Sequence record: PQ850632.1
Origin: Escherichia phage VerenaMeyer_Bas76
Strand: one strand, 5' to 3'
DNA: 43,821 nucleotides
Position numbers and translations under genes: made by a program. Within the stretch, counting starts at the first letter, position 1, and each line of letters starts with the position of its first letter. The notes beneath the pieces were generated by a model. It was not told the DNA's origin. It ran no database searches and was given only the letters and a program-made list of their open reading frames with translations. Positions 40-30,895 of the stretch are shown here, piece after piece.

Positions 40-549
40 ATGAAGCTGAAACTTAAGCAGCCATCACCAGAGGTGGTGCAAGCTGCACATGAAGAAGCTG
101 TTAGCGCAAACCGTCGCCGTAAACGACCGCGCGGTAAACAGAGCCTTTATCAATCATCCCGTAATTCTGCGGCATTGTGGGACCCGGACTACTGTGACGC
201 GTTAATCGAGTTCTTCGACCGCACGTCGTGGGAGCTTGTGCCAACGTCTAAGGGTGACGAACGCCCGCTGATTCAGGATAAACCACCGTCACTGGCCCGC
301 TTCGCCTTACACATCGGAGTCACTATCCCGATTATTAAGCTTTGGCTGCGTGAGATTCCCGCATTTGCAGAAGCCTGGGAGACAGCACAGGCGCTGGAAG
401 AGGCATACTTCACTGAAACGGGGGCCGCGGGCATCTCTGCTACGTTTGCTGCCGCGAAACTGGGCCTGAATAAAACAGTTGTCGCCGAAGAAGTACGCGA
501 CGAGCCAATCAGCGAAGTAACAATTAAGGTGGTGTCCGGTGAACGTTAA
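40..549 (+). CDS. terminase small subunit (putative)
   Basis: ORF 1..549 lies immediately upstream of and overlaps the large terminase gene. The protein is basic near the N-terminus (RRRKRPRGK) with an HTH-like segment. ATG at 40 follows AAGGGGA by 5 nt; ATG at 25 or the frame opening at 1 are alternatives. Function assigned by position and composition only. Confidence 0.5.
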   Translation: MKLKLKQPSPEVVQAAHEEAVSANRRRKRPRGKQSLYQSSRNSAALWDPDYCDALIEFFDRTSWELVPTSKGDERPLIQDKPPSLARFALHIGVTIPIIKLWLREIPAFAEAWETAQALEEAYFTETGAAGISATFAAAKLGLNKTVVAEEVRDEPISEVTIKVVSGER

Positions 550-1810
550 TATCACGGCAACGGAGCCGCAAGGCGCGTTTCTCGGTATGCATTGCAAGTT
601 TCCGGCATTCGTAGCTGGCTTCGGTACGGGTAAATCCGAAGTTATGTGCAACTCTGCACTACTCGACAGCATGGAAGGTGGGAGCGATTCTATCATCGCC
701 ATGTATGAGCCGACTTATGACCTGGTGCGCCTCATCCTTGCACCGCGTATGGAAGAAAAGCTCACCGACTGGGGTATCCGGTACAAATACAACAAGTCTG
801 ACAACATAATCTATACGTCTTCCGGACAATTTGGGGATTTTGTTCTGCGTACACTTGATAATCCAGCACGAATCGTTGGCTACGAATCGTTTCGTGCGAA
901 AATCGACGAGTTGGACACCCTTAACATGGAGCACGCCGAGCACGCGTGGAACAAAGTCATCGCCCGTAACCGCCAGTTGCCGCGGACATATAAACCTATT
1001 ACACCGAAACCTGCTAATACCGTTTCCGTGTTCACTACCCCGGAAGGATTCCGTTTCGTACATGACCGCTGGGTAGTCAAAAAGAATCCAGGCTACGAGA
1101 TGATTCAGGCGTCCACCCTGTCTAACCCGTTCCTGCCAGAAGATTATGTGCAGTCGTTACGCGACACATACCCAGGTCAGTTGATTGACGCCTACATCAA
1201 CGGCGAGTTCGTCAACCTGACGGCGGGGACTGTCTATTACGCCTATGACCGCAGGAAAAACAGCAGCCGCGAAACAATAAAACCAGGCGAGACTCTGTAT
1301 ATCGGGCAGGACTTTAACGTAGGCCACATGGCTAGTACAGTTTACGTGCAACGTGGCAAAGTCTGGCATGCAGTCGCCGAGTTGGTGGATATGTTCGATA
1401 CGCCCGATGTGGTGAGAGCCGTAACAGAGCGCTGGAAAAGTAAGGGCCACTATATCGTTATGTACCCCGACGCAAGCGGTAAAAACCGTAAAAGTAACAA
1501 CGCCAGCACATCTGATATTGCCCAGTTACAGCAGGCCGGCTTCGAAGTGCGCGCTAAATCGACAAACCCACCGGTTAAAGACCGCGTAGCGGCGATGAAT
1601 AAGGCGCTTGAATCTGGTATGGTCATGATTAATGAACAGGCTTGCCCTGTTACCGCACGATGCCTGGAGCAACAGGCTTACGACAAGAACGGCGAACCGG
1701 ATAAATCAGGCGGTGTGGACCACCAGAATGATGGAACCACATACCCTATCGCGTATGAAATGCCGATTCGCAAACCAGTTATTAACGTCCCGGTGACTTT
1801 CGCACTTTAA
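539..1810 (+). CDS. terminase large subunit
   Basis: 423 aa, GTG start after AAGGTGG. Walker A-like GFGTGKS near the N-terminus and a C-terminal nuclease-like region. Directly precedes the portal gene. Confidence 0.8.
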   Translation: MNVNITATEPQGAFLGMHCKFPAFVAGFGTGKSEVMCNSALLDSMEGGSDSIIAMYEPTYDLVRLILAPRMEEKLTDWGIRYKYNKSDNIIYTSSGQFGDFVLRTLDNPARIVGYESFRAKIDELDTLNMEHAEHAWNKVIARNRQLPRTYKPITPKPANTVSVFTTPEGFRFVHDRWVVKKNPGYEMIQASTLSNPFLPEDYVQSLRDTYPGQLIDAYINGEFVNLTAGTVYYAYDRRKNSSRETIKPGETLYIGQDFNVGHMASTVYVQRGKVWHAVAELVDMFDTPDVVRAVTERWKSKGHYIVMYPDASGKNRKSNNASTSDIAQLQQAGFEVRAKSTNPPVKDRVAAMNKALESGMVMINEQACPVTARCLEQQAYDKNGEPDKSGGVDHQNDGTTYPIAYEMPIRKPVINVPVTFAL

Positions 1811-1822
1811 GAGGATTATTCA

Positions 1823-3304
1823 ATGTTAACTATGAACGGTCAGAATCAGGGTGTTAAGACAAAACACCGGGAATGGCTGCATCACTTCGATAAATGGCAG
1901 AAGGTACGCCACGCTCTTGAAGGCGACCTTATCCGCTATCTGCGCAACGTCGGGAAGAACGAGCCTGACCAGACCTACGCAGCACAGCGACAGGAAGAAT
2001 ACGAGAACGGCGCTATCTGCTACAATTTCACCAAACGCACGCTGGCGGGGATGACGGGGTCAGTGATGCGCAAAGACCCTGAGCAGATTATCCCGCCTGA
2101 ACTTGAGTACCTGTTGCACAACGCTGACGGTTCAGGTGTCGGGCTGTGGCAGCACGCGCAGGATACGCTGATGGAGATTAACTCGATAGGCCGTGGCGGG
2201 TTGCTGGTGGACGCCCCGGAAACAGCCGCAGCAACGGCGGCAGAGCAGAACGCGGGATTATTAAACCCGGTAATCGCATTCTATACCGCGGAGAACATTA
2301 TCAACTGGAGACTCACCCGCATCGGTTCAGTGAACCGCGTGACGATGGTTGTATTGCGTGAGGCATGGGAATACTCGGAACCAGGCGCTGAGTTTGAAAC
2401 AAAATTCGGCGAGCAATACCGCGTCCTTGACCTGATTGACGGTCGCTACCGCCAGCGCATCTACCGCTTCGATGCCGAAGGTGGCGCACAGGATGAAGTA
2501 ATCGAAATCTTCCCGGAACTCGGCGAACAGTTGCGCGGTAAAATCCCGTTCACGTTCATTGGCGCAAGCAACAACGACGCCACTATAGACGATGCGCCTT
2601 TACTGCCGTTAGCTGAGCTAAATATCGGTCATTTCCGCAACAGCGCAGACAATGAGGAGTCCAGCTTCGTTGTAGGCCAGCCTACTCTGTTCATCGCCCC
2701 AGGTGAGAACATGAGCATGGAGCAATGGAAAGAAGCCAACCCTCACGGTGTGCGCATGGGGTCCCGTTCAGGTCATAACATTGGTTACGGCGGCAATGCG
2801 TTTCTGGTTCAGGCAGGAGAGAACAACCTCGCCAAACAGAACATGCTGGATAAAGAGAATCAGGCCATCCAGATTGGCGCGCAGCTTATCACCCCGACGC
2901 AGCAAATCACCGCGGAATCGGCCCGCCTGCAACGCGGCGCCGACACGTCAGTCATGGCAACAATAGCACGTAATGTAAGCATGGCGTATACCGATGCGTT
3001 GCGCTGGGTTGCGGGTATGCTTGGGCTTAGTGAAGATACTGAGATTGAGTTCAAGCTGAATATGGAATTCTTCCTGCAACCTATGACAGCTCAGGACCGC
3101 GCTCAGTGGATGGCGGATATTAACGCTGGCCTGCTACCCGCCACCGCTTACTATGCTGCGTTGCGCAAGGCAGGTGTGACTGACTGGACAGATGAGGACA
3201 TTCAGAACGCTATTGAAGACGCACCTCTGCCGTTGGGTTCTGTTGCTCAGGTAGCGGGAGAGATTCCGCAGTCGGCGCAGCAACAGGACACCACTCAGCA
3301 GTAA
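1823..3304 (+). CDS. portal protein
   Basis: 493 aa, ATG after AAGAGGA. Sits between terminase and head morphogenesis genes; size and acidic C-terminus are typical of portal proteins. Confidence 0.75.
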   Translation: MLTMNGQNQGVKTKHREWLHHFDKWQKVRHALEGDLIRYLRNVGKNEPDQTYAAQRQEEYENGAICYNFTKRTLAGMTGSVMRKDPEQIIPPELEYLLHNADGSGVGLWQHAQDTLMEINSIGRGGLLVDAPETAAATAAEQNAGLLNPVIAFYTAENIINWRLTRIGSVNRVTMVVLREAWEYSEPGAEFETKFGEQYRVLDLIDGRYRQRIYRFDAEGGAQDEVIEIFPELGEQLRGKIPFTFIGASNNDATIDDAPLLPLAELNIGHFRNSADNEESSFVVGQPTLFIAPGENMSMEQWKEANPHGVRMGSRSGHNIGYGGNAFLVQAGENNLAKQNMLDKENQAIQIGAQLITPTQQITAESARLQRGADTSVMATIARNVSMAYTDALRWVAGMLGLSEDTEIEFKLNMEFFLQPMTAQDRAQWMADINAGLLPATAYYAALRKAGVTDWTDEDIQNAIEDAPLPLGSVAQVAGEIPQSAQQQDTTQQ

Positions 3305-3314
3305 GTTCACCTAT

Positions 3315-3336
3315 AGCCCCGAAAGGGGCTTTCTTA
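3315..3336 (+). terminator. stem-loop AGCCCC-GAAA-GGGGCT followed by TTCTT (attenuator-like)
   Basis: Perfect 6-bp GC stem with GAAA tetraloop and a short T-run between the portal and head morphogenesis genes. Confidence 0.4.
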
Positions 3337-3340
3337 TAGT

Positions 3341-4417
3341 ATGCTATTAACTTTAGCGCCACAGGGTTTATCTATGAGCTTACTTACATCCCTAATCAGC
3401 CATCAGATATGGCTGCAACGCACCGCATCCGGTGAGGTGAAAGACCTCACGCCGTTCATTCAGGAGATAAGGGATGAAATCAAACGGCAGGTGCTGTTAT
3501 TCGGTGACGACGGTCGCAGCACTGCGCGACTGAATAAACTGTTACGCGACCTGGAAGAAGCACTAACCGGTATTACGGGTGACTGGCAAACAAAGCTAAC
3601 AGACGACCTTAAGGAACTGGCGGCGTACGAGGCTGAGTGGAACGTAAAGACACTGACCGCCAACGTAGACGCGGAATTTGTTACGCCTACCGCTGAGCAG
3701 GTATGGGCCGCTGCCGAGTTTCAACCATTATCATTGAGCGACAAGCCCGTTGATTTCACCAAGCTGATGTCTGGATGGGGCGAAACGGAAGTAGCACGTC
3801 TTGTAACTGGAGTTAAGATGGGCTTTGTGCAAGGTCAAACCACACGGCAGATTGTTAAGAATGTTGTTGGCGCTGGTGGACTAGCCGACATCTCAGAACG
3901 TAACGCGACTACGGTAATCCGCACCGCGCTGTCCCACGTATCCAACGAGGCCCGTAACGAGACGTACCGCCAGAACGACGACATCATCGAGAAGTACGAG
4001 TGGGTGTCAACGCTTGACAGCCGCACCAGTACGATTTGCAGGGTCAGAGACGGGATGACGTGGGAAATTGGTAAGGGGCCGATGCCCCCAGCCCATCCGA
4101 ACTGCCGGTCGTGCACGGCTCCGGTAATCAGTTCCGAGTTCGACTTCCTCGATAAAGGCGCAAAACGCGCGGCTAAAGGCGCGGAAGGTGGCACTCAGGT
4201 AAGCGCAGACACCACTTACTACGAGTTCCTTAAACAACAACCGGCGTGGTTTCAGGACCAGGCGCTCGGCCCGGTGCGAGGTAAGATTTTCCGTAACAGC
4301 GGTATATCGCCGGAAGAGTTTCGCGTAATATCTGTAGATGGTTTCGGGAATCCGCTCACGCTTAAGCAGATGGCGGAACTCGATAAACGTGTTGCTGATT
4401 ATCTGAAAGGGGAATAA
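3341..4417 (+). CDS. head morphogenesis protein (SPP1 gp7 / Mu F-like)
   Basis: 358 aa, directly after portal. Composition and position match the minor head protein family usually found after portal. ATG 3374 is an alternative start. Confidence 0.6.
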   Translation: MLLTLAPQGLSMSLLTSLISHQIWLQRTASGEVKDLTPFIQEIRDEIKRQVLLFGDDGRSTARLNKLLRDLEEALTGITGDWQTKLTDDLKELAAYEAEWNVKTLTANVDAEFVTPTAEQVWAAAEFQPLSLSDKPVDFTKLMSGWGETEVARLVTGVKMGFVQGQTTRQIVKNVVGAGGLADISERNATTVIRTALSHVSNEARNETYRQNDDIIEKYEWVSTLDSRTSTICRVRDGMTWEIGKGPMPPAHPNCRSCTAPVISSEFDFLDKGAKRAAKGAEGGTQVSADTTYYEFLKQQPAWFQDQALGPVRGKIFRNSGISPEEFRVISVDGFGNPLTLKQMAELDKRVADYLKGE

Positions 4418-4878
4418 TGATGGGCTTTTTCAAAGTAACTGACGTACCGTCTCGTCGCGTAGTCCAGTACGCCCGCGTGTCTGGCTCTGGCGAGAACGTG
4501 GTATTTATTGAGGACGAAAGTGTACTCGGTACACCGGTAGATGATATGCCGTTTGCAGATAAAACCGGTATTGCGTTGCCCGCCGCCGGTATGCTTTATG
4601 AAATTCCGTATCTGGCGGACGCTGGCGACGTGTATTTCTCTGTGCAACCAAAAGACGCTGAACTGGCCGACGGCAGCGCGACTATCACTGTCGAAGTTAA
4701 AGCAGGTGAAGCGCCGTATGCACTGACCTGGTACAAAGACGGTAAGGAAGTTGTCAACGCCCCGGAAGAGGCACTTTCCTTGACGGTTAACGCAGTGGGT
4801 GAATACTTCGTTAAAGTTACCGATGCTGATGGTGTAGAGGCTGTCAGTAAAGCTGCGAAGGTCACTAAGCCCGAATGA
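4417..4878 (+). CDS. Ig-like domain protein (possible capsid decoration protein)
   Basis: 153 aa, start overlaps the previous stop (TAATGATG). The C-terminal segment YALTWYKDGKEV...GEYFVKVTDADG is an Ig-like/BIG fold signature, paralogous to the C-terminus of ORF 7880..8221. Confidence 0.55.
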   Translation: MMGFFKVTDVPSRRVVQYARVSGSGENVVFIEDESVLGTPVDDMPFADKTGIALPAAGMLYEIPYLADAGDVYFSVQPKDAELADGSATITVEVKAGEAPYALTWYKDGKEVVNAPEEALSLTVNAVGEYFVKVTDADGVEAVSKAAKVTKPE

Positions 4879-4880
4879 TA

Positions 4881-4908
4881 AAAGGCCCCATTAAGGGGCC
4901 TTAGTTTT
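4881..4908. terminator. bidirectional intrinsic terminator (AAGGCCCC-ATTA-AGGGGCCTT)
   Basis: GC-rich hairpin with T-run on the plus side (AGTTTT) and A-run/T-run on the minus side. Sits between convergent genes 4417..4878(+) and 4908..5111(-). Member of a three-copy terminator family (see 12138 and 24196). Confidence 0.65.
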
Positions 4909-5111
4909 CAACGGAATCTTGTGTTTAAATCCTGCTCGTGGACGACCCTCAGAACAGTGTCATAATCCCCGTATCTTCCAGGTTCAAATATATCTAATGC
5001 CTTGTAAGCAGACATTGCGTCAGGGAAAACCTGCAGAACCTTTTTAACCCGGCACAAGTCACCGTCGAACTCTTCATCGAACTCTTGAACTACTTCGCAA
5101 ATTGCATACAT
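4908..5111 (-). CDS. hypothetical small acidic protein (67 aa), opposite-strand island gene
   Basis: ATG at 5111..5109 preceded by GGAGGTG on the minus strand. Driven by a TTGCAC-N17-TACTAT promoter copy and ends at the bidirectional terminator. No recognisable domain. Confidence 0.5.
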   Translation of the reverse strand: MYAICEVVQEFDEEFDGDLCRVKKVLQVFPDAMSAYKALDIFEPGRYGDYDTVLRVVHEQDLNTRFR

Positions 5112-5138
5112 TTTTCACCTCCTGTTTAAGTTAACTGA

Positions 5139-5167
5139 ATAGTACCCTATTATATTGGGGTGTGCAA
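5139..5167 (-). promoter_or_regulatory. sigma70-type promoter TTGCAC-N17-TACTAT (early promoter family copy 1)
   Basis: Minus-strand reading TTGCACACCCCAATATAATAGGGTACTATTCA. Near-identical copies at 13943..13971(-), 36609..36637(+) and 38025..38053(+). Confidence 0.55.
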
Positions 5168-5233
5168 ACTATTTATTTACGTATTCCAGTTATTCCACCG
5201 AATTGTAAATGTTGGAATAAACTATTCGAATAG

Positions 5234-5262
5234 TTGACTTTTCACTAAAAATATGATAAGCT
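5234..5262 (+). promoter_or_regulatory. candidate promoter TTGACT-N17-TGaTAAGCT overlapped by palindrome ACTATTCGAATAGT
   Basis: -35 TTGACT at 5234-5239; extended -10 (TG at 5254-5255, hexamer TAAGCT at 5257-5262). The 14-bp perfect palindrome at 5221-5234 abuts the -35. Confidence 0.3.
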
Positions 5263-5440
5263 CCACCTGAGCTTGTGAAGTATGAACAAGCGACCGCGGC
5301 GCGGGCAGGTAACGGAGCGGGACGTAAGTCCTGAGTGTAGTTACGCTGACGCGTTCGGAAGGGCCATACTCTATTGCTTGTGTAAAAAGTAACAGGTTTA
5401 CTGAGATTACGCCGTTTCTATGTTTAAATGATAAGGACTA

Positions 5441-5468
5441 GCGCCCCGCTTTATGGCGGGGCTTTACT
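5441..5468 (+). terminator. intrinsic terminator/attenuator upstream of the spanin genes
   Basis: Stem GCCCCGC/GCGGGGC (5443-5449 with 5456-5462) followed by TTTACTT, 19 nt upstream of the Rz-like start. Confidence 0.5.
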
Positions 5469-5486
5469 TATCGAGAAAGGGGAAAC

Positions 5487-5873
5487 ATGAATCTTAAAGC
5501 AACTGTCGTAGCAGGAGCATGTTTCATCATCCTGGTTTACGCACACGGCATCTACCAGTATCGCAGCGGATGGAACGAAGGCCGGGCTAATCTCGTTTCG
5601 CAGCAACAGCAGAAAGCACAGGCTGAGTTAGCGAAGAAAACACAACGGCAGCAGCAGGATGAATCGAAGGCCGCCGCCGCTGACAACGAAGGCAAGACGA
5701 AATCAGAGGTGATTACCCGTGAAGTCGTTAAGTACATTAAAACGCCTGGTCGCAGTGTGTGCGCTTTTGACCCTGAGCGCGTGCAGCTCAAGTCCCGCGC
5801 CGTCGCAAACGCCAACTCCATCCCCGGATACGACGATGATGCAGCCGCCGTGCAAACTGGCACCGCCAAGTAG
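5487..5873 (+). CDS. i-spanin (Rz-like inner-membrane spanin)
   Basis: 128 aa. N-terminal transmembrane anchor (ATVVAGACFIILVYA) followed by a charged, Q/A/K-rich periplasmic region. Contains an out-of-frame lipoprotein gene, the Rz/Rz1 hallmark. Confidence 0.7.
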   Translation: MNLKATVVAGACFIILVYAHGIYQYRSGWNEGRANLVSQQQQKAQAELAKKTQRQQQDESKAAAADNEGKTKSEVITREVVKYIKTPGRSVCAFDPERVQLKSRAVANANSIPGYDDDAAAVQTGTAK

Positions 5874-5982
5874 CGACGCCGACGAGGATTTGGCTATCGA
5901 CGTTCAGAACGCTGAATGTGTACGGCAACTGCGTCTGAAAGTGTTCATGTTGCAGGATTACGTGAGGAATATTCTGGAATAG
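5719..5982 (+). CDS. o-spanin (Rz1-like outer-membrane lipoprotein)
   Basis: 87 aa, GTG start after AGAGGTGA, in the +1 frame overlapping the 3' part of the i-spanin gene and extending past it. Signal peptide with lipobox LTLSAC, followed by a Pro-rich mature region. Confidence 0.7.
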   Translation: MKSLSTLKRLVAVCALLTLSACSSSPAPSQTPTPSPDTTMMQPPCKLAPPSSDADEDLAIDVQNAECVRQLRLKVFMLQDYVRNILE

Positions 5983-6064
5983 TTGCCTTGCATGTTGGAA
6001 TAATTTATTCTTGACATGTAAATCCGGGTGGCCCGGATTCCAACGTCCAGGGGACATACTGACT

Positions 6065-6766
6065 ATGAATCGTTTTTTACGTTATCCGTTCCAGGAAGAA
6101 GCTGGAGCAGAAGATAAAGCTGGTGGCGGTGACGCTCCTAAAATGTTCACCGCTGAAGAAGTTCAGGCGCTGATTGAGAAAGAAGTTGCCGGGCTTAAGG
6201 CTAATCAGGAAGCATTGTTGGCGGAGAAGAAAGAAGCCGCTCGCAAAGCAAAAGAGGCCGAAGAAGAACGGCAGCGCGCGCACCAGGAGGCGTTAAAGGC
6301 CGCCGGTAAGATGGACGAGTTTGAAAAGACGATTCGTAGCCAGTATGACCCGGTGTTAGCCGAGAAAGATGGCCGCATCTCCAGAATGGCAGAGCGTATC
6401 CTCGGCAGCGAACGTAAAGCGGTGCTAGGCTCTTTCGCGGGTGACTTTATTACCCCAGAAGCAGTGGACATTCTTGCGCCGTTCGTTAAGACTGAGTTCG
6501 AAGGCGATGATGTGGTTACTAAGTTTGTTGGTGCAGACGGTAACGTAATCACGACTGACCCGGAACAGTTCCGCAAATACCTGCGCGAACACAAGGCGTT
6601 TTCGCATTTGATCAAAGCAAATGCAGCTTCCGGCGGCGGGGCTTCCGGTAGCAAAGGCGGCGGGGCCGCACCAGCGTTTAAAGACATGAGTGAAGCAGAG
6701 CGTTTAGCCCTGTATAAATCGAACCCTGCCGAATTTGAACGGCAACTTAAAGCCCTGAGGAAATAA
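6065..6766 (+). CDS. scaffolding protein (putative)
   Basis: Highly charged, Ala/Glu/Lys-rich coiled-coil-like protein immediately upstream of the major capsid gene. ATG 6065 preferred over the TTG at 6011, which lies inside a hairpin. Confidence 0.55.
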   Translation: MNRFLRYPFQEEAGAEDKAGGGDAPKMFTAEEVQALIEKEVAGLKANQEALLAEKKEAARKAKEAEEERQRAHQEALKAAGKMDEFEKTIRSQYDPVLAEKDGRISRMAERILGSERKAVLGSFAGDFITPEAVDILAPFVKTEFEGDDVVTKFVGADGNVITTDPEQFRKYLREHKAFSHLIKANAASGGGASGSKGGGAAPAFKDMSEAERLALYKSNPAEFERQLKALRK

Positions 6767-6768
6767 TA

Positions 6769-7818
6769 ATGGCAATTACCACTATCGGCGATATCGTAAC
6801 TGGCAACATCCCGGTCCTGGCGTCTTATATGACCGAGGACCCGGTAGAAAAAACCGCGTTCTTCCAGTCTGGTATTCTGACCCCGACCCCGTACGCTGCC
6901 GAGATTGCCCGCGGCCCGTCCAACGTCGCTAATATTCCTTTCTGGAAAGCGATTGATACCTCTATCGAGCCGAACTACTCGAACGACGTATACCAGGACA
7001 TCGCCACCCCGCGTAACGTGCAGACCGGCGAGATGATGGCGCGCGTTGCGTACCTGAACGAAGGTTTCGGTCAGGCGGATTTGACCGTTGAACTGACCAG
7101 CCAGAACCCGCTGCAATCCGTAGCGTCACGTCTGGATAACTTCTGGCAGCGTCAGGCACAACGCCGTCTGATTGCTACCGCGCTCGGGCTGTACAATGAC
7201 AACGTAGCCGCTACCGACGCATACCACGAGCAGAATGACATGGTAATCGACGTGTCTGCTACTCTGGGCTTCGATGCGGGCGCGTTCATCGACGCTACCC
7301 AGACTATGGGCGATGCTCTGATGGGCAACGGCGGTGAAGTGCTGGGGGCTATCGCGATGCATAGCTTCGTTTATGCGCAGGCACGTAAGCAGCAGCTTAT
7401 CGACTTCATCCGTGACGCGGACAACAACACCATGTTCGCCACCTACCAGGGCTACCGCGTGATTGTTGACGACAGCATGACCGTAGTCGGCACTGGCCCG
7501 ACCCGTAAGTTCATCTCCATCATCTTCGGCAACGGCGCTATCGGTTACGGTGAAGGTTCTCCGTCCAACCCGCTGGAATACGAGCGCGAAGCGTCTCGCG
7601 GTAATGGTGGTGGCGTTGAAACCCTGTGGACCCGTAAGACCTGGTTGCTGCACCCACTGGGCTACAGCTTCACCAGCGCAGTAATCACCGGCAACGGCAC
7701 CGAGACTACCTCGCGCTCCGCTTCCTGGCAGGACCTGGCGAACGCCTCCAACTGGAACCGTGTGGTTGACCGCAAGCACGTACCGATTGCCTTCCTGGTA
7801 ACTGGTGTCGGTGCTTAA
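6769..7818 (+). CDS. major capsid protein
   Basis: 349 aa. Follows the scaffold gene and is followed by a strong terminator; size and position are typical of a major capsid protein. Confidence 0.75.
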   Translation: MAITTIGDIVTGNIPVLASYMTEDPVEKTAFFQSGILTPTPYAAEIARGPSNVANIPFWKAIDTSIEPNYSNDVYQDIATPRNVQTGEMMARVAYLNEGFGQADLTVELTSQNPLQSVASRLDNFWQRQAQRRLIATALGLYNDNVAATDAYHEQNDMVIDVSATLGFDAGAFIDATQTMGDALMGNGGEVLGAIAMHSFVYAQARKQQLIDFIRDADNNTMFATYQGYRVIVDDSMTVVGTGPTRKFISIIFGNGAIGYGEGSPSNPLEYEREASRGNGGGVETLWTRKTWLLHPLGYSFTSAVITGNGTETTSRSASWQDLANASNWNRVVDRKHVPIAFLVTGVGA

Positions 7819-10554: not shown

Positions 10555-10967
10555 TGGGCTACTTTGAGGACTTAACAAAAGCGTTCGATGTTCCGCTGGT
10601 AGCCTTCGGAACCGCCAACGGCATCAAGGTTGCGCTTGAAAACATCGACGCGCCGACGTCAACCGATACGCCGTATCTGGCGAGTTACATGCTACTGGCA
10701 GATACCGAGCAGGCGGATTTGTTCTTCACTGAGCAACGCTCTGGTATTTATCAGGTAGACATTAACTACGCATCGGTGAAAGGTAGCGCGCCAATCAATA
10801 AAATGGCAGACTTACTTAACACGGCGTTTAAAGCAGGTAAGTCATTTTCGCGTAACGACATCTGCGCCGAGGTTCAATCGGTTAGCCTGGGGCCGCTGAT
10901 TGTAGAAAACGGATGGGCCAAACGACCATTGTCAATTAACTTTATTGCATTCACCAAGAGGCTGTGA
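10554..10967 (+). CDS. tail terminator / tail completion protein (putative)
   Basis: 137 aa, ATGA-coupled to the gp10-like gene and precedes the major tail gene. Confidence 0.4.
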   Translation: MGYFEDLTKAFDVPLVAFGTANGIKVALENIDAPTSTDTPYLASYMLLADTEQADLFFTEQRSGIYQVDINYASVKGSAPINKMADLLNTAFKAGKSFSRNDICAEVQSVSLGPLIVENGWAKRPLSINFIAFTKRL

Positions 10968-12136
10968 ATATGGCTACAACTCCTTTTAAGGGCGCGAATA
11001 CCGCGCAATTCTATGTGGCGGAAACTACCCCTGGCGTAACACCGACTAACCCGGTATGGTCGCCGTTGCGTAACACGGGCGGCGTTCCCGCTGTAACCCG
11101 CGATGCACTGACTTCCAACGAACTGGACGGCAGCCGTGAAACTACATCCATCCGAACCGGTAACAAGCAGGTTAGCGGGGAGTATGCCATCGAACTTAGC
11201 TCTCGTAGCCAGGATGATTTCCTTGCGGGAGCGATGACTTCTACGTGGCAAGCTGGGGTAGAGATTACTGGCGCCGAAATTACGGTCGCCCCAGCAGGTA
11301 AAACATTCACCCGCGCTGCCGGTAGCTTCATTACTGACGGTGTAGAAGTTGGCGACCTTATTGCGTTCACCGACTTAACCGGCGACAACGCAAAACCGTT
11401 TATCGTGACCGCGGTTTCCGCTCTGGTAGTTACGGGCGCAGGTATTCAGCACACGCTGACAGCAGAGACAGTAACCACTGACGCAAAAACTGGCGACAAG
11501 CTGGAAACCGGTAACGCGTGTAAGACGTTCTCCATCCTGACGTGGTTCAAGGGCCAGTGTGGTAACCCGGACGCGTACATGCTGACCAAAGGTGTGGAAA
11601 TCTCTGGCTTTACCGTAGAGCAGGCGGTTAACGCCATGGTCACCGGCAGCTTCCCGTTCATCGGCCTGAGTCAGGAGATTCTTACCGCGCCGCCGTCTGG
11701 CTCTGATTTCTCTCAGGTTACGTTCACCGATGAGCCGTTCTCGTCGGTAGATGTGTCGGTGTTCGATGGCTCCACGCCGTTGCGTTGCGATACTCTCACC
11801 ATCACCAACGACAACGGAGCTTCCGCGCAGTTCGAACTCGGTAACAGTAGCGTGGCGTTCGTCGAACGTGGACGCGCAGCTAACACATTCTCTATCTCTG
11901 GCAAGCTGTACGACATGGCGATGATTCAGAAGTTTATCAACGAGCAGCAGGTAGAGATTAACTCTATTCTGGCAGGGGTAAACGGGGCTATGTCTTTCAG
12001 TTTGAAACGTGCAGAGCTTACGGCGGTTACACCTGAGATTGGTGGGCCTGAGTCAATCACTCAGTCCATTGAAGGCCAGGCTACCGGCAATCAGTACCAG
12101 TCGTCTATCGTAATTCAACGTATCACCTACGCATAA
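10964..12136 (+). CDS. major tail (tube) protein (putative)
   Basis: 390 aa, last gene before the tail chaperone and tape measure set. Ser/Thr/Gly-rich. Confidence 0.5.
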   Translation: MNMATTPFKGANTAQFYVAETTPGVTPTNPVWSPLRNTGGVPAVTRDALTSNELDGSRETTSIRTGNKQVSGEYAIELSSRSQDDFLAGAMTSTWQAGVEITGAEITVAPAGKTFTRAAGSFITDGVEVGDLIAFTDLTGDNAKPFIVTAVSALVVTGAGIQHTLTAETVTTDAKTGDKLETGNACKTFSILTWFKGQCGNPDAYMLTKGVEISGFTVEQAVNAMVTGSFPFIGLSQEILTAPPSGSDFSQVTFTDEPFSSVDVSVFDGSTPLRCDTLTITNDNGASAQFELGNSSVAFVERGRAANTFSISGKLYDMAMIQKFINEQQVEINSILAGVNGAMSFSLKRAELTAVTPEIGGPESITQSIEGQATGNQYQSSIVIQRITYA

Positions 12137-12137
12137 A

Positions 12138-12166
12138 ACTAAGGCCCCTTTCGGGGCCTTTTTCTC
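12138..12166. terminator. bidirectional intrinsic terminator (AAGGCCCC-TTTC-GGGGCCTT)
   Basis: Hairpin with TTTTTC on the plus side, sitting between convergent genes 10964..12136(+) and 12165..12395(-). Same family as 4881 and 24196. Confidence 0.65.
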
Positions 12167-12395
12167 ACTCATCAATATTACTTCGATACTCCCGTAACTT
12201 CTCCAGACTTTCAATTGCTTCTGCTAAGTCGGTTCCGGTGTCCTTATGCCCGCGAAGACCCATGCACAATAACTTCTTCAATGCGTGCTGTAGTGCGGGG
12301 TCACGGATGTCGAAGGCACGGAGAACATCGTAAACGTCTACGGTCATAGTGCTGCCGTGAGTGTTTGTCATTGTTCGGTTGTATTTTGAAGTCAT
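12165..12395 (-). CDS. hypothetical protein (76 aa), last gene of the opposite-strand cassette
   Basis: Start overlaps the upstream stop (ATGA coupling with 12392..13522). No recognisable domain. Confidence 0.45.
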   Translation of the reverse strand: MTSKYNRTMTNTHGSTMTVDVYDVLRAFDIRDPALQHALKKLLCMGLRGHKDTGTDLAEAIESLEKLREYRSNIDE

Positions 12396-13522
12396 CCCAG
12401 CATCTCCGGTGAAATAGTTAAACGTGCGACCTCGCCATATTCGGCGCTATAAGTAATTACATTTGCACTACGGCCTGACATCCACCCGCCGCGGGAGGCA
12501 TAGGCGTCTTTAGCCGCTAAGGTGCGGTGTTGCTCAACAATCATGTTACGGCTTTCTACAATCTTCTGGTGGTGCAGGTGGCCTACGTGGGCGTAGCTAT
12601 AGACACTCTCACCGAACGCTTTGCGGAATTTGGCAATCATAACCGGTTCGATAGCATCGAATCGCGCCTTATGCCCGTGGTGAAAGAACAACGTCGTTTT
12701 TCCGTGTTGCACCATCTTGTAAACATCCGGCGACGTATCGACAATCACTCGGCTGTCGTTCGAATATAAAACTGTGAACATTTCAGCCAGCCATACAGAG
12801 CCTACAGGGTCATGGTTCCCCTGTACGATAAGCAAGCGAACATTTTTATGTTTAACCAGTGCCATATCTACAACACGGCGTACCATACGAATCATGTAGC
12901 GGACGAGTTTCTGGTAGCGAGTGTCTGCGTCCAACACGTGACGCGACTCGGGTGTAACGGCATCCAGACTATCGAAGTGCGCGAAATCACCCAGCAGGTT
13001 AATAACTCCTGTTCCTGCATCCGGTGCTTTCTGAAACGCCGCGTCGAACCAACGAGAGAACAGGTCTTCCGCAATCTTTATATCCCAGTCGTCGCCGCTC
13101 TCGTCGGCCCAGGCAAGCATACCGAGATGGAAATCAGATACCGTGTAAAGATTGAGTAGCTTGTCGTCGCGTTTGGCTCGAGTCGCTTTAGCCGGCGCAA
13201 CTGGCGTAATCTCTGACTTCATGCCTTCAATCACGGCTTTCATCAACTCGACCTGACGTTCAGCGTCGGTGTCTGTCTTAACCCATTGCAACTTAGTATT
13301 GCCGAACTCGTCTACCAGAGACGACGTCCCTTTAATCTTGTAGCCGTCTGGGACAAGGTGGCTAACGTCACGCCCGTGGCCTACACCTTTCTTAGCCAGC
13401 TTCGCTTTACGGATACGAATAACTCGGTCTGAGATGCCGTATTTACGGGCGATGTCTACATTCTTCATCCCGGCGTTCAATTCTTCCTGTAACTGTTCGT
13501 CGGTTATTTTCTTCTGGGCCAT
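12392..13522 (-). CDS. HTH-domain protein fused to calcineurin-like metallophosphoesterase
   Basis: 376 aa. N-terminal HTH (VDIARKYGISDRVIRIRKAKL). Ordered metallophosphatase motifs: SDFHLG, GDFAHFD, GNHD, HHGH, GHLHH. Confidence 0.7.
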   Translation of the reverse strand: MAQKKITDEQLQEELNAGMKNVDIARKYGISDRVIRIRKAKLAKKGVGHGRDVSHLVPDGYKIKGTSSLVDEFGNTKLQWVKTDTDAERQVELMKAVIEGMKSEITPVAPAKATRAKRDDKLLNLYTVSDFHLGMLAWADESGDDWDIKIAEDLFSRWFDAAFQKAPDAGTGVINLLGDFAHFDSLDAVTPESRHVLDADTRYQKLVRYMIRMVRRVVDMALVKHKNVRLLIVQGNHDPVGSVWLAEMFTVLYSNDSRVIVDTSPDVYKMVQHGKTTLFFHHGHKARFDAIEPVMIAKFRKAFGESVYSYAHVGHLHHQKIVESRNMIVEQHRTLAAKDAYASRGGWMSGRSANVITYSAEYGEVARLTISPEMLG

Positions 13523-13587
13523 GCTTACTTCCTCGTGTTTAGGATTTGTCCTATTTAACCACAGTGGATTCCTTTAAATAAAGGCAA

Positions 13588-13914
13588 CTATTTACTTTCT
13601 GCGCCTATCGCCCACCCTGTCATTACCATTTGCAGACGGGTGGCTGTCAGTAGGCTATAGAAAGCATCTCCGTTTTTCTCTACCGAACGTATCACTGTGT
13701 AGGTTACGGCCTGCGGGGGTAGGCCCGATTTACCGACATCTACGGCGGCCTCGCATTCACGGACTGTGGAGTCCTTAAATGCCTTTACAATAGTAGGGTC
13801 GGCTTTATCAAGCACACCAGAAGTCATAAGAACAGATTCACTAAATACCTGTTCGCACGGGGCTCCAAAAGTAGCAAAAGACATAAAACCCAGAGCTAGT
13901 ACTAATTTACGCAT
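13588..13914 (-). CDS. secreted/periplasmic small protein with signal peptide (108 aa)
   Basis: N-terminus MRKLVLALGFMSFATFGA is a classic signal peptide. ATG preceded by GAGGAA. First gene downstream of promoter copy 2. Confidence 0.55.
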   Translation of the reverse strand: MRKLVLALGFMSFATFGAPCEQVFSESVLMTSGVLDKADPTIVKAFKDSTVRECEAAVDVGKSGLPPQAVTYTVIRSVEKNGDAFYSLLTATRLQMVMTGWAIGAESK

Positions 13915-13942
13915 AATTATTTCCTCAGTAAGTTACATGTGA

Positions 13943-13971
13943 ATAGTACCCTATTATATTGGGGTGTGCAA
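13943..13971 (-). promoter_or_regulatory. sigma70-type promoter TTGCAC-N17-TACTAT (early promoter family copy 2)
   Basis: Minus-strand reading TTGCACACCCCAATATAATAGGGTACTATTCA, identical over about 30 nt to the copy at 5139..5167. Confidence 0.55.
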
Positions 13972-14078
13972 GTAGTGTGCTAGAATAAGTTTGCGCCTAG
14001 TGTCGCACACGAAAAGCGGGTGGTTCCCGCCTGGCGCATTAACCATAACCAGTAACCTCTTAACCAAAGGACTAAAGA

Positions 14079-14495
14079 ATGAAACTTTCTGATTTCTATT
14101 TTGCCGACCGCCACGCCGCCGGTACTAAAATGCCTATCCTTCTGCCCAGTGGTAAAGATTCCGGTGAATGGTTGCAGGTCATCGGCCCCGATTGTGACGC
14201 TGGTGTTCGTGCGGGCCGTGCCTACACAACGGCAATTCGACGCCTTACGGAAGAACTTGCGCCATTAGATAAAGAGTGCGAGGCGCTGAATAACTGGGCG
14301 CGCTATAATGATGAGAAGGGCTGGCGGGTGATGGACCTGAACAAGCAGCTTGCCGTGGAAATCGTCACCGGTTGGTCATTCGACGAACCATTCAGCAAAG
14401 AGGCGCTTGCTAACCTGTTCGACCAGTACAGTGGGTTGGCAGAGGCCGTAGTTAAGCATCACACCGATAGCCGCGAGAAACTCTCGGAAAAGTAA
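14079..14495 (+). CDS. tail assembly chaperone (G-like)
   Basis: 138 aa, immediately upstream of the tape measure gene. The -1 frame stays open from about 14480 to 14857, allowing a G-T style fusion. Confidence 0.6.
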   Translation: MKLSDFYFADRHAAGTKMPILLPSGKDSGEWLQVIGPDCDAGVRAGRAYTTAIRRLTEELAPLDKECEALNNWARYNDEKGWRVMDLNKQLAVEIVTGWSFDEPFSKEALANLFDQYSGLAEAVVKHHTDSREKLSEK

Positions 14496-14857
14496 AAGCG
14501 CTGTATGAATTTGCGCAATGGTGCTTTGTCGACCGCCACAAACGTAAGCAATTCGACGACATCGCGGCGGGCCACCAGGCGGCTTTGATTGCAATGGGCG
14601 TGATTAAAGAACCGCAGATGAAAGAAGCGACGGGGCCGGAATGCCCCGTTTCTCTTATCGACGTGTTCGAGAAATACCGTGCCATTAAATTCCTACAGCG
14701 CGAAACAGATGATACTATCGTTATAATCCCGCGCGATGCGCTCAAATGGCAAGATTTGGTAGCGTTTCGTGATGTCGCCGGTTACGGCATAAGTTTGTTC
14801 GAAGCCGAGGTTATCATGGGCTTAGACGGAATATTTGAGGGCAGAGAAGATGGCTGA
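14486..14857 (+). other. putative -1 programmed frameshift extension (T part of a G-T fusion)
   Basis: Sequence GGAAAAGTAA at the end of the G-like ORF. The -1 frame has no stop from about 14480 to 14857 and ends overlapping the tape measure start. The heptamer is not the canonical X_XXY_YYZ, so the shift site is uncertain. Confidence 0.4.
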
Positions 14858-17162
14858 TACGGCTTCCCTAATTGCCAGAGTAAAAACAGAAGGCGCTGAT
14901 GTAGCCGCTAAACAGCTTGACGCTATGGCGGCATCCGCAGACCGTGCGGACACATCCGTAAACAAACTAACGCCGGATGTTAATAAAGTAAACTCCGCTA
15001 CGTCTAAAGCGGCTTCTGACGGTTTCGCTAAATTCCGTAACGCCGCCGGGCAGGTAGGCTTCCAGGTGCAGGACATGGTCGTCCAGTTGCAGTCCGGCAC
15101 GTCTGCATTCGTAGCAATCGGGCAACAAGGCTCTCAGCTTGCGGGTGCTTTCGGCCCTGGTGGTGCGGTGCTTGGGGCTGTAATTGCTCTTGCGTCAGCT
15201 ATCGGTGGCGTCTTGTACAAATCGCTAACAGAGGCGGAGGGGAGTTCAAAAGACCTCGAAGCCGCGCAGAAACAGTTAAAAGACACCTTCCAGCAAACAG
15301 CATCCGGCTCTCTCGAACTGACAGACGGCCTTATCCAGCTTACCCAAATCAGCCGAGAAGCGGCGGAGACTCAGCTCGCTCTGGCTAAGGCTAACGCAGA
15401 CCTTATCGCGCAGCAAACAGCTAAAGCCGTTCGAGAGGACGCAGAATCATGGGAGACATGGAAAGCCTCCACAGCATCGGCTATTAGCCAGTATGATGCG
15501 CTGGTTTCTAAGGGTGCTGATGTAGGCGACACGTTAGAAAAACTCGGTGGCACTTACGAGGGTAATATCGTAGGCGTCAACATGCTGGCACAGAATATAG
15601 CAGAGCTTAGTAGTAAGTTCGGGGTTAACCGTGACCAGGCGCTGGAGATGATAGCGGCACAGAGCGCGTTTAATAAAGAGCCGACCGCTGAGAATGCCCG
15701 CCGCATCGCCGATGTGTTTACCGACTGGCTTGGTAACACTAAGCAGTTGAACCCGGAACTTATCCGCCTGACAGACAACGCCAACAAAAACGCCACGGCG
15801 CTGGAAAACGCAGAGAAGTCGGCAAACGCGGCGGCGGAGGCTCAAAAGAACCTCGGTCGTAACGTTAACTCAACCACGCAGAGATTCCAGGAACAGAACG
15901 AAGCTATCGTCAAGAATCAGCAAATCGCCATCTTAAGCGACCGTGAGCGTATCAGGGCACAAGCTGAACTGGATAAGCAGGCGTTCGCTAAACGTGAAGC
16001 TGTCACCAAAGAACAGATAGCCGCGTATAACGCTGCCCGTGACGCGGAAGCGCAGCAAGACATAGCTCGCATTGACAAGACCGAGAAAGAGAAGGCAGAC
16101 CGCGAGGCTAAATCGAACGAGAAACGTCTGGCGGCGCAGGCCAAACGCGAAGAAACGGCGGCGCAACGTCAGAAAAAAGCGGCGGAAGATTTCCTCGCTA
16201 CTGTCGACCGAACAACCGGAGACGAAATTTCTCGCATCACGGCGGCAGAAGAGCAGAAACTGGCGAAACTTGAAGAGTTTAACCGCGCCGGAACAATAAG
16301 CCAGCAGCAGTACGAAAACGCCAAAACGCAGATTATGCTCACCGCCGAGCAGGCCCGACAGGAAGAACTGGATAAGAAAAGAAAAGAAGCCCAGGAAAAG
16401 CAGCAGAAAGGCGACGACTTCATGGCACAGATTATGGGCCAGAACGCTACTGAGCTTGAGCTTCTCGACATCCAGGAACAGCAGAAGCTGGCGGTCGCGG
16501 ATAAGTATCGAGAGCAGGGGCTTATTAACGAGGAACAGTATCAGGCGGCACTTAACGCTATAAATGAGCAGTATGCTACGAAGCGCGCCGACGCTTTAGG
16601 TAATTCTTTCGGTGACATGGCGGCTAATGCTAAAACAGCATTTGGCGAGGCGTCCACCGCGTATAAAGCGTTTGCTATCGCACAGGCAACTATCGCCACG
16701 TACACATCGGCTATCGAGGCATATAAGTCAACGGCTGCCATCCCTGTTGTCGGCCCATTCCTGGCGCCGGTTGCTGCGGCTACTGCCGTTGCCGCGGGGC
16801 TGGCTAATATCGCCAAAATCCGCTCGGCGCGTGAGCAGGGCGGGCAGTTATCCGCCGGGCAGGCTTCTACTATCGCAGAACGCGGTAAACCAGAAGTTAT
16901 TATGCCTGCTGGTGCATCGCGAGTACGCACTGCACAGCAGATGAAAGAAATTATGGGGCAAAACGGGTCTTCTTCCGGCCCATCTAATGTTACCATCGTA
17001 AACAACACGAGTTCTCAAATCGGCAACGTATCCACTGAGCAAGATGATGAAGGCCGTTTGCGTATCATCATAGAAGAGCAAGTTGCTGCATCTTTGCAGA
17101 ACAGCAACAGCAAGATTAGCAAGGCCCGCAAAGCCACAAGAAATGCGCCGGGGTTTAAATAA
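14850..17162 (+). CDS. tail tape measure protein
   Basis: About 770 aa. Long Ala/Gln/Glu/Lys-rich coiled-coil, hydrophobic Gly/Ala-rich segments near the C-terminal third, located after the chaperones. ATG 14850 preferred over TTG 14835. Confidence 0.85.
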   Translation: MADTASLIARVKTEGADVAAKQLDAMAASADRADTSVNKLTPDVNKVNSATSKAASDGFAKFRNAAGQVGFQVQDMVVQLQSGTSAFVAIGQQGSQLAGAFGPGGAVLGAVIALASAIGGVLYKSLTEAEGSSKDLEAAQKQLKDTFQQTASGSLELTDGLIQLTQISREAAETQLALAKANADLIAQQTAKAVREDAESWETWKASTASAISQYDALVSKGADVGDTLEKLGGTYEGNIVGVNMLAQNIAELSSKFGVNRDQALEMIAAQSAFNKEPTAENARRIADVFTDWLGNTKQLNPELIRLTDNANKNATALENAEKSANAAAEAQKNLGRNVNSTTQRFQEQNEAIVKNQQIAILSDRERIRAQAELDKQAFAKREAVTKEQIAAYNAARDAEAQQDIARIDKTEKEKADREAKSNEKRLAAQAKREETAAQRQKKAAEDFLATVDRTTGDEISRITAAEEQKLAKLEEFNRAGTISQQQYENAKTQIMLTAEQARQEELDKKRKEAQEKQQKGDDFMAQIMGQNATELELLDIQEQQKLAVADKYREQGLINEEQYQAALNAINEQYATKRADALGNSFGDMAANAKTAFGEASTAYKAFAIAQATIATYTSAIEAYKSTAAIPVVGPFLAPVAAATAVAAGLANIAKIRSAREQGGQLSAGQASTIAERGKPEVIMPAGASRVRTAQQMKEIMGQNGSSSGPSNVTIVNNTSSQIGNVSTEQDDEGRLRIIIEEQVAASLQNSNSKISKARKATRNAPGFK

Positions 17163-30706: not shown

Positions 30707-30895
30707 ATAAAATTTTGCAATAGGGATTATGTTCTCGAAATTAAGCATATTGGCCGGTTCGAACTCATCCTCTACAGGGTCGTATCGCATCATGGTACCG
30801 TTCAAGAACGTGAACGATTCCGAGTGTAGATACCCATCCCAGCGCCATACCATCAAAAAATCTTTATCAGTCGGCATTTCATTTACTTGAATCAT
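30692..30895 (-). CDS. hypothetical protein (67 aa)
   Basis: ATG 30895..30893 overlaps the nuclease stop (ATGA). The Shine-Dalgarno GAGGAGGA lies inside the last codons of the nuclease gene. The ORF track extends to 30925. Confidence 0.4.
   Translation of the reverse strand: MIQVNEMPTDKDFLMVWRWDGYLHSESFTFLNGTMMRYDPVEDEFEPANMLNFENIIPIAKFYLTHE

Follow-up and report, generated by a model that had tools for sequence, protein, structure and literature searches.

A helix-turn-helix-linked calcineurin-like metallophosphoesterase encoded among the tail genes of Escherichia phage VerenaMeyer_Bas76

A gene for a calcineurin-like metallophosphoesterase (MPE) fused to a helix-turn-helix (HTH) domain was examined in a 43,821-nucleotide stretch of DNA from Escherichia phage VerenaMeyer_Bas76 (PQ850632.1), referred to here, at its full length, as the window. 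A preliminary description of this DNA had placed an open reading frame (ORF) at 12392-13522 without giving its strand; the ORF listing returned exactly these ends and put the ORF on the minus strand (Table 1). The same description had read the product as an HTH followed by a basic linker and a complete calcineurin-like MPE. All five motifs that it quoted are found in the translation in the correct order, and the basic linker lies behind the HTH at about residues 35-52 (RIRKAKLAKKGVGHGR). The source genome belongs to the genus Kagunavirus (Guernseyvirinae), and comparison with six Guernseyvirinae orthologues gave ratios of nonsynonymous to synonymous substitution rates (dN/dS) of 0.03-0.08; the gene is under strong purifying selection. 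From the sequence comparisons, the gene is confirmed as real, with a predicted product in which a DNA-binding domain is joined to an intact two-metal phosphoesterase.

Three domains were distinguished in the predicted protein. The helices of the N-terminal HTH occupy residues 8-16, 21-28 and 32-44 in the AlphaFold2 model. GerE was matched by the family profile at E 0.0065, and individual family members matched the Pfam models Sigma70_r4_2 (1.5e-9) and GerE (2.4e-8) as well as several further HTH models. On this profile and model evidence the HTH is real, and DNA binding by it is predicted. The middle domain, which was overlooked in the preliminary description and matched no family, has a conserved G74 and W80 and the pattern KG-S-...QWVK. 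Conservation was assessed in an alignment of 60 sequences, consisting of the window protein and 59 representatives with 33-49% identity. In addition to the motif residues listed in Table 1, T190 and G363 were invariant in this alignment. Judged by their positions in the motifs, the conserved residues are exactly those predicted to bind metal and phosphate in an active metallophosphoesterase. The AlphaFold2 model made with the same alignment had a mean predicted local distance difference test score (pLDDT) of 92.6, with values of 97-99 across most of the catalytic domain, and it has the beta-sandwich fold of the MPEs.

Table 1. Coordinates of the MPE gene, its domains and motifs, and other features of the window. 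Invariance and percentages refer to the 60-sequence alignment.
Feature	Position	Strand	Remarks
HTH-MPE ORF	12392..13522	-	Single ORF in the interval; 376 amino acids; ATG start; GAGGAAG ahead of ATG
N-terminal three-helix HTH, residues 8-44	13391..13501	-	Sigma-70 region 4 / LuxR-GerE type; AlphaFold2 helices and profile matches
Middle domain, residues about 57-115	13178..13354	-	Beta-hairpin (61-70, 76-85) and helix (87-102)
Calcineurin-like MPE catalytic domain, residues 116-376	12395..13177	-	
Motif I, SDFHLG, residues 129-134	13121..13138	-	D130, H132 invariant
Motif II, GDFAHFD, residues 178-184	12971..12991	-	G178, D179 invariant; H182, D184 at least 90%
Motif III, GNHD, residues 235-238	12809..12820	-	N236, H237 invariant; G235, D238 at least 90%
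Motif IV, HHGH, residues 281-284	12671..12682	-	H282 invariant; H281, G283, H284 at least 90%
Motif V, GHLHH, residues 314-318	12569..12583	-	G314, H317 invariant; H315 at least 90%
First islet gene, 108-amino acid protein	13588..13914	-	PHROG 14165 (unknown function); no Pfam match
Downstream 76-amino acid ORF	12165..12395	-	Translationally coupled to the MPE gene via ATGA overlap
TATAAT, consensus -10 hexamer, poor -35	13953..13958	-	39 nucleotides upstream of first islet gene; candidate promoter
GC-rich hairpin (8 pairs) and T run	12141..12160		Between tail tube gene and islet end
Exonuclease, 418 amino acids, PHROG 69	30892..32148	-	Replication module; two genes from gp2.5-like single-strand annealing protein

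Sub-profiles of the individual domains were used to follow the architecture through the family. The HTH was detected in 132 of 142 full-length representatives, the middle domain in 137 of 142, and the catalytic domain in all 150 searched. Since the two accessory domains are present in nearly all full-length representatives, the fusion appears from these profile matches to be old and stable and no local accident. The HTH is absent in some lineages: Campylobacter phage CPX, Roseobacter phage RDJL and Rhizobium phage 16-3 match only from residue ~57-65 onward. A second, partial copy of the beta-hairpin was seen between the HTH and the catalytic domain in 6 of the 150 representatives (P0125, P0148, P0153, P0200, P0203 and P0224), and this duplication suggests that the hairpin may be a repeatable binding unit.

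The window protein scores below the Pfam gathering thresholds for Metallophos_2 (22.1 versus 27 bits), Metallophos (17 versus 21.5) and GerE (14.6 versus 23.5), and a search of NCBIfam gave nothing meaningful. Metallophos and Metallophos_2 were matched at E <= 0.01 by 19 and 12 of 60 relatives, respectively (about one third for Metallophos). The low scores and the small number of matching relatives indicate that the family is a divergent branch for which there is no dedicated Pfam model; membership in the MPE superfamily rests on the motifs and the fold. A far stronger match was found to PHROG 704 (E 1.5e-162), in which residues 3-375 align with profile positions 1-389 of 390. This is the window protein's own family, known in GenBank as 'DNA repair exonuclease', with the three-domain architecture in common; names used within it include 'calcineurin-like phosphoesterase', T1p16, KP36 gp63, 16-3 p044 and Bas75_0023. 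The last of these, from Escherichia phage AnnaReinhart_Bas75, is 100% identical to the window MPE in protein and 99.9% in gene DNA, and equally close copies are present in Bas70, Bas72, Bas73 and KMB35. Close copies are annotated as 'DNA repair exonuclease', 'DNA repair protein', 'phosphatase' or 'calcineurin-like phosphoesterase'. The preliminary description had presented the gene as unusual, which is not supported: GenBank already has an annotated protein with 100% identity to its product, and the family, with members in over 2000 phage genomes, has been catalogued before. The MPE gene is an ordinary one for a phage; its product matches a deposited protein exactly, and nothing in it is new for the source genome. 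The description had also held that its interpretation would fail if the protein were placed in a family with a known housekeeping function that normally sits in the tail region of relatives. PHROG 704 members do lie at the same tail-module position in relatives, but the housekeeping function, that of a 'DNA repair exonuclease', appears from the annotations to be a label given by homology alone.

The family is widespread in phages. A scan of 1.84 billion cluster representatives gave 4567 clusters (50% identity) at E <= 1e-3 and 1129 at E <= 1e-30, and tblastn found 2036 phage records, with Escherichia (559), Klebsiella (468), Salmonella (373), Vibrio (254) and Campylobacter (59) among the hosts, in addition to others. 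The MPE gene is persistent in 508 of 522 Drexlerviridae, where it lies at the end of the replication block (2026 KanT1 pangenome paper, PMC13164509). Apart from that paper, the literature on Kagunavirus, Guernseyvirinae, Drexlerviridae and T1 gave mentions in genome announcements only. When each bacterial species was represented by a single genome, a scan gave just 40 loci, many of them inside large chromosomal contigs of Proteobacteria, and we infer that these chromosomal loci are probably prophages. One further locus, a 13 kb contig in a Bacteroidota assembly (Taishania pollutisoli scaffold23, L102), carries an islet like that of phage Jersey with an MPE 55% identical to the window protein. 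The tail gene clusters that flank this islet are the same as in Jerseyvirus, and the contig probably comes from phage DNA that contaminated the assembly, not from a prophage.

Searches of PDB sequences with the protein (phmmer) and with two family profiles (hmmsearch) gave weak HTH matches (GerE, E 0.0065) and noise at E > 1. As these searches were uninformative, the protein was compared by fold. Foldseek against the PDB placed Mre11, PolD DP1 and Rv0805 on top, all at about 12% identity. The fold-comparison figures were 15.9 for the PolD DP1 proofreading exonuclease (214 residues aligned), 15.1 for Mre11 and 15.0 for SbcD, followed by LpxH (13.6), MJ0936 (13.5), YfcE (12.9), GpdQ (12.2), Rv0805 (12.1), the Pseudomonas putida nuclease MPE (9.4) and the PPP protein phosphatases (8.6-9.2). 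In BFVD, family members were followed by numerous phage proteins bearing the label 'DNA polymerase II small subunit' or 'metallophosphatase'. In these model-based comparisons the protein resembles the nuclease branch most, yet it falls outside the Mre11/SbcD family. The preliminary description had offered nuclease, phosphatase and phosphodiesterase as choices to be made by inference. Its domain call, an HTH with a complete calcineurin-like fold, stands, and the evidence now ranks the three, with nuclease ahead.

The ranking bears directly on two of the other explanations. A lambda NinI-like protein phosphatase, acting on Ser/Thr/Tyr to undo host signalling, would have the superfamily fold and motifs in common with the window protein, but the fold and signatures of the PPP Ser/Thr phosphatases (the lambda NinI type) were not among the closest matches; this is the least supported of the explanations considered, and we give it hardly any weight. 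The fold would also permit a nucleotide-directed phosphoesterase, one that hydrolyzes immune second messengers (cyclic mono-, di- or oligonucleotides), deoxynucleoside tri- or diphosphates, or NAD+, in counter-defence or in reshaping of the nucleotide pool, with the HTH serving for autoregulation or localization only. Against this, nuclease MPEs come first in the structural ranking, the HTH and the extra domain are conserved together with the catalytic domain, and two large phage groups carry the gene persistently, in contrast to the patchy occurrence of known anti-defence genes. No family in PADLOC-DB 2.0 was matched at E <= 1, though Calcineurin-CE may be missing from PADLOC 2023, and no link was found in the literature, so that assignment to a defence or anti-defence system was rejected. 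The class III phosphodiesterases (Rv0805, CpdA/Icc) rank below the nucleases, lack the HTH and the beta-hairpin, and gave no match at the sequence level. Overall, a nucleotide-directed activity seems to us unlikely, and an anti-signalling phosphodiesterase in particular is disfavoured.

Among the nuclease MPEs, similarity to Mre11/SbcD is seen in motif I, where the SDFHLG of the window protein and the SDWHLG of E. coli SbcD follow the same pattern. However, the spacing from motif III to motif IV is shorter in the window protein (46 versus 101 residues), and an N-terminal HTH and beta-hairpin domain take the place of the capping domain. PolD DP1, the archaeal small subunit with 3'-5' proofreading exonuclease activity, has 12% identity to the window MPE. 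No PolD-type subunit is annotated in the phage, whose polymerase is a single gene annotated as 'DNA polymerase'; in T1-type phages the MPE lies in the replication block, in which the annotated genes are helicases and a primase. The MPE of Pseudomonas putida is a Mn-dependent single-stranded DNA endonuclease, encoded in an Lhr-ligase repair cluster, that stands alone without Rad50. One cluster member carries the source label 'Nuclease MPE'. The pre-early protein A1 of phage T5 is a predicted MPE that is reported to be necessary and sufficient for degradation of host DNA, and its authors list double-strand-break repair nucleases and polymerase proofreading subunits as its structural neighbours (bioRxiv 10.64898/2026.04.02.716235). 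A1 is thus like the window MPE in being a phage-encoded predicted MPE with the same structural neighbours, but it is 556 amino acids long, has a different N-terminal region and is encoded by a pre-early gene in the T5 terminal repeat. We retain it as a possible functional analogy only. The window protein is a stand-alone, HTH-linked MPE, distinct from Mre11/SbcD, DP1, T5 A1, the P. putida MPE, the class III phosphodiesterases and the PPP phosphatases.

The MPE gene is the second of three genes in a minus-strand islet (13914..12165) that separates the plus-strand tail tube gene (10964..12136) from the genes for the tail assembly chaperones and tape measure protein (14079 onward). The islet points the same way as the replication genes, which lie at about 24.5-37 kb. 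Judged from the strand and the layout, the earlier designation of the product as a phage early protein is plausible. An islet is found at the same place in phages Sciku, 22664BS2, VIPECOTH07 and Jersey; the MPE gene is constant while its neighbours vary. The stop codon of the window MPE gene overlaps the ATG of the 76-amino acid ORF (ATGA). In the Kagunaviruses 22664BS2 and VIPECOTH07, the position of this ORF is taken by a polynucleotide kinase (PNK) gene (PHROG 415, HAD type) and then a gene of PHROG 139, 'dNMP kinase' (deoxynucleoside monophosphate kinase, T4 gp1-like), and in Sciku by three small ORFs. The 76-amino acid ORF itself matches only the C-terminal 60-70 residues of longer, ATPase- or kinase-like PHROGs (2452; 17613, 'ATPase'; 13223), and may represent a kinase-associated C-terminal domain, either as an independent copy or as a remnant.

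Related loci for a wider survey of neighbouring genes were found with a 12-sequence alignment, and ORFs were clustered around 129 family members (81 groups at 80% identity) from IMG/VR contigs, prophages and annotated phages. In the fetched flanks, the neighbours recognized among the 81 groups were endolysin (28), gp1-like P-loop kinase (16), HNH (12), VRR-NUC (8), PNK-HAD (5) and ligase (3); these counts are descriptive and carry no background frequencies, so that enrichment is not claimed. The neighbourhoods were very diverse and none was universal, and a single conserved operon partner was therefore rejected. In Klebsiella phage KP36 (Drexlerviridae) the order is Dam ... MPE, PNK, dNMP kinase, holin, endolysin, and in T1 the MPE gene follows a block of helicase, VRR-NUC and Dam genes and precedes the lysis genes. 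Where an SH3 gene is absent in Drexlerviridae, the MPE gene is most often followed immediately by those for PNK and dNMP kinase (PMC13164509). Erwinia phage phiEa100, a T7-like podovirus of the Autographiviridae, has genes for an exonuclease, endonuclease VII, the HTH-MPE, PNK (HAD), a gp1-like kinase and DNA ligase (2491..7200 of locus L011), a run that looks like a complete block for DNA-end processing and sealing. In the IMG/VR contig L031, genes for the MPE, PNK (HAD), a P-loop kinase and DNA ligase again form one run. A gp30-type ligase gene lies directly upstream of the MPE gene in Campylobacter phage CPX, and in the temperate Rhizobium phage 16-3 the MPE gene is among early genes, near those for a NinI-like phosphatase, an HD dNMP phosphatase and a gp1-like kinase. 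Taken from unrelated phage lineages, these neighbourhoods point to a putative role in nucleic-acid and nucleotide metabolism.

The runs of end-processing genes invite a different explanation, that the MPE is an end-healing enzyme. At broken ends of RNA or DNA it would have the activity of a 2',3'-cyclic phosphodiesterase or 3'-phosphatase, like the MPE domain of bacterial Pnkp or lambda phosphatase, and together with the HAD phosphatase, kinase and ligase would undo the damage done by host nucleases or ribonucleases. The arrangements in phiEa100 and contig L031 agree with such a role, as do the association of MPE, PNK and kinase in KP36 and the Kagunaviruses and the ligase adjoining the MPE in CPX. 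In the T5-like Vibrio phage D232 (L097), the gene for the A1 'DNA transfer protein' (271..1920) is directly followed by a PNK gene (2000 onward); the order of MPE and then PNK thus recurs in an unrelated MPE family, and this too is in keeping with end healing. Lambda-phosphatase-type folds were a poor match to the protein, however, the neighbouring kinase has the character of a dNMP kinase, and the PNK, kinase and ligase partners are absent in most genomes, including that of the source phage. We consider end healing improbable.

The frequency of endolysin neighbours raises the further question of a DNA-binding regulator, in which the sigma-r4-like HTH would govern transcription in the phage, such as the changeover to lysis or late genes, with the MPE as a sensor or accessory domain. 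The type of the HTH (sigma-70 region 4 or LuxR) is what such a regulator would have, there is a weak match to PHROG 836, 'late transcriptional activator' (E 8.8e-4), and in Drexlerviridae the gene is directly upstream of the holin-endolysin-spanin genes. The catalytic residues, on the other hand, are all invariant or nearly so, which argues for an enzyme; the CPX, RDJL and 16-3 lineages keep the MPE and lack the HTH; and the lysis genes of the source genome are far off, at about 40.3-41.4 kb. A regulator is accordingly a very unlikely explanation of the family.

The explanation that we favour, with a probability of roughly 45%, is that the MPE is a Mn-dependent, Rad50-independent DNA nuclease that takes part in phage DNA-end processing or nucleotide salvage. 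The enzyme would be an active two-metal phosphodiesterase, probably with Mn2+, of the nuclease branch of the calcineurin-like superfamily, and its substrate would likely be DNA. The HTH, of the sigma-r4/LuxR type, and the beta-hairpin domain would tether the enzyme to DNA, and the catalytic domain would cut phosphodiester bonds without a Rad50/SbcC partner. Expression would be from the small minus-strand islet that interrupts the tail genes and is oriented like the replication genes. Two roles can be proposed: the nuclease may prepare DNA ends for repair or recombination by trimming or cleaning them, or it may degrade DNA, possibly that of the host, to mononucleotides that a gp1-like dNMP kinase would re-phosphorylate. 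Precedents are T4 gp46/47, which acts with the gp1 kinase in the salvage of host DNA, and T5 A1 with its reported part in host DNA degradation. DNA as the substrate, the metal dependence, the timing of expression and the biological role are all inferred.

A number of observations weigh against a DNA nuclease of this kind. No link at the sequence level to any solved nuclease was found in the PDB searches, and hhalign of the family against E. coli SbcD gave a probability of 4%, confined to motif III. A capping domain is absent, the protein ending about 60 residues past motif V, and the inspected parts of the Bas75 genome (record 4711-43870) have no annotated Rad50/SbcC partner. Membership in the T5 A1 family was rejected, since hhalign against eight diverse A1 homologues gave 25%, over 26 columns around motif III. 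In the survey, PNK was a neighbour in 5 of the 81 groups and the kinase in 16, while endolysin, the most frequent recognizable neighbour (28), is uninformative as to the chemistry. Both PNK and the kinase have been lost from the source phage. Its separate exonuclease gene of PHROG 69 lies two genes from that of the annealing protein, which indicates that the phage already possesses a recombination exonuclease unrelated to the MPE. Pairs of an MPE and a HAD protein can act on free nucleotides rather than on polynucleotides, as in PUA-Cal-HAD, and the presence of the family in prophages and temperate phages fits less easily with wholesale destruction of host DNA. Finally, no experimental work on any member of PHROG 704 was found in the literature searched. 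The PHROG 69 exonuclease was also considered as a possible second MPE paralogue in the source genome and was rejected as such, as it is unrelated.

In broader terms, the MPE could be the enzyme with which T1-like and Jersey-like phages destroy or recycle host DNA, a separately arisen analogue of T5 A1, or else a nucleotide-directed phosphoesterase that works with its HAD and dNMP-kinase neighbours to reset nucleotide pools or remove immune nucleotide signals; we hold this broader proposal to be rather doubtful. If true, either possibility would provide the first function for a gene that persists in over 2000 sequenced phages. The family is among the commonest unstudied enzymes of well-used coliphage groups (T1/Drexlerviridae and Jersey/Kagunavirus), and it is also present in the BASEL phages Bas70-75, which are of the same genus, and in many therapeutic Klebsiella and Salmonella phages. 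Once the substrate is known, it would be clear whether host DNA is degraded or salvaged by these phages, or whether the enzyme repairs host-inflicted damage. The fate of host DNA bears on the risk of transduction in phage therapy and on the host defences that are triggered by DNA breakdown products.

The 108-amino acid protein encoded by the first islet gene has an apparent Sec signal peptide (MRKLVLALGFMSFATFGAP...), judged by inspection only. In other Kagunaviruses the first slot of the islet holds a 63-amino acid 'superinfection immunity' gene resembling T4 Imm, and the slot looks like a swappable one for exclusion or moron genes. The TATAAT at 13958..13953 was read from the sequence and was not listed by the pattern scan. 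It lies in the divergent region of 164 bp between the islet and the tail chaperone gene (13915..14078), which also contains a terminator-like hairpin (14009..13992). At the opposite end of the islet, the GC-rich hairpin with its T run is likely a bidirectional terminator, to judge from its form; the corresponding site in phage Sciku is annotated as a terminator on both strands. A small minus-strand ORF (13980..14114) was seen at the divergent region, where a 93-nucleotide gene is annotated in Bas75. The tail assembly chaperone ORFs (14079..14495 and 14585..14857, plus strand) have the usual G/GT arrangement ahead of the tape measure gene (14835..17162).

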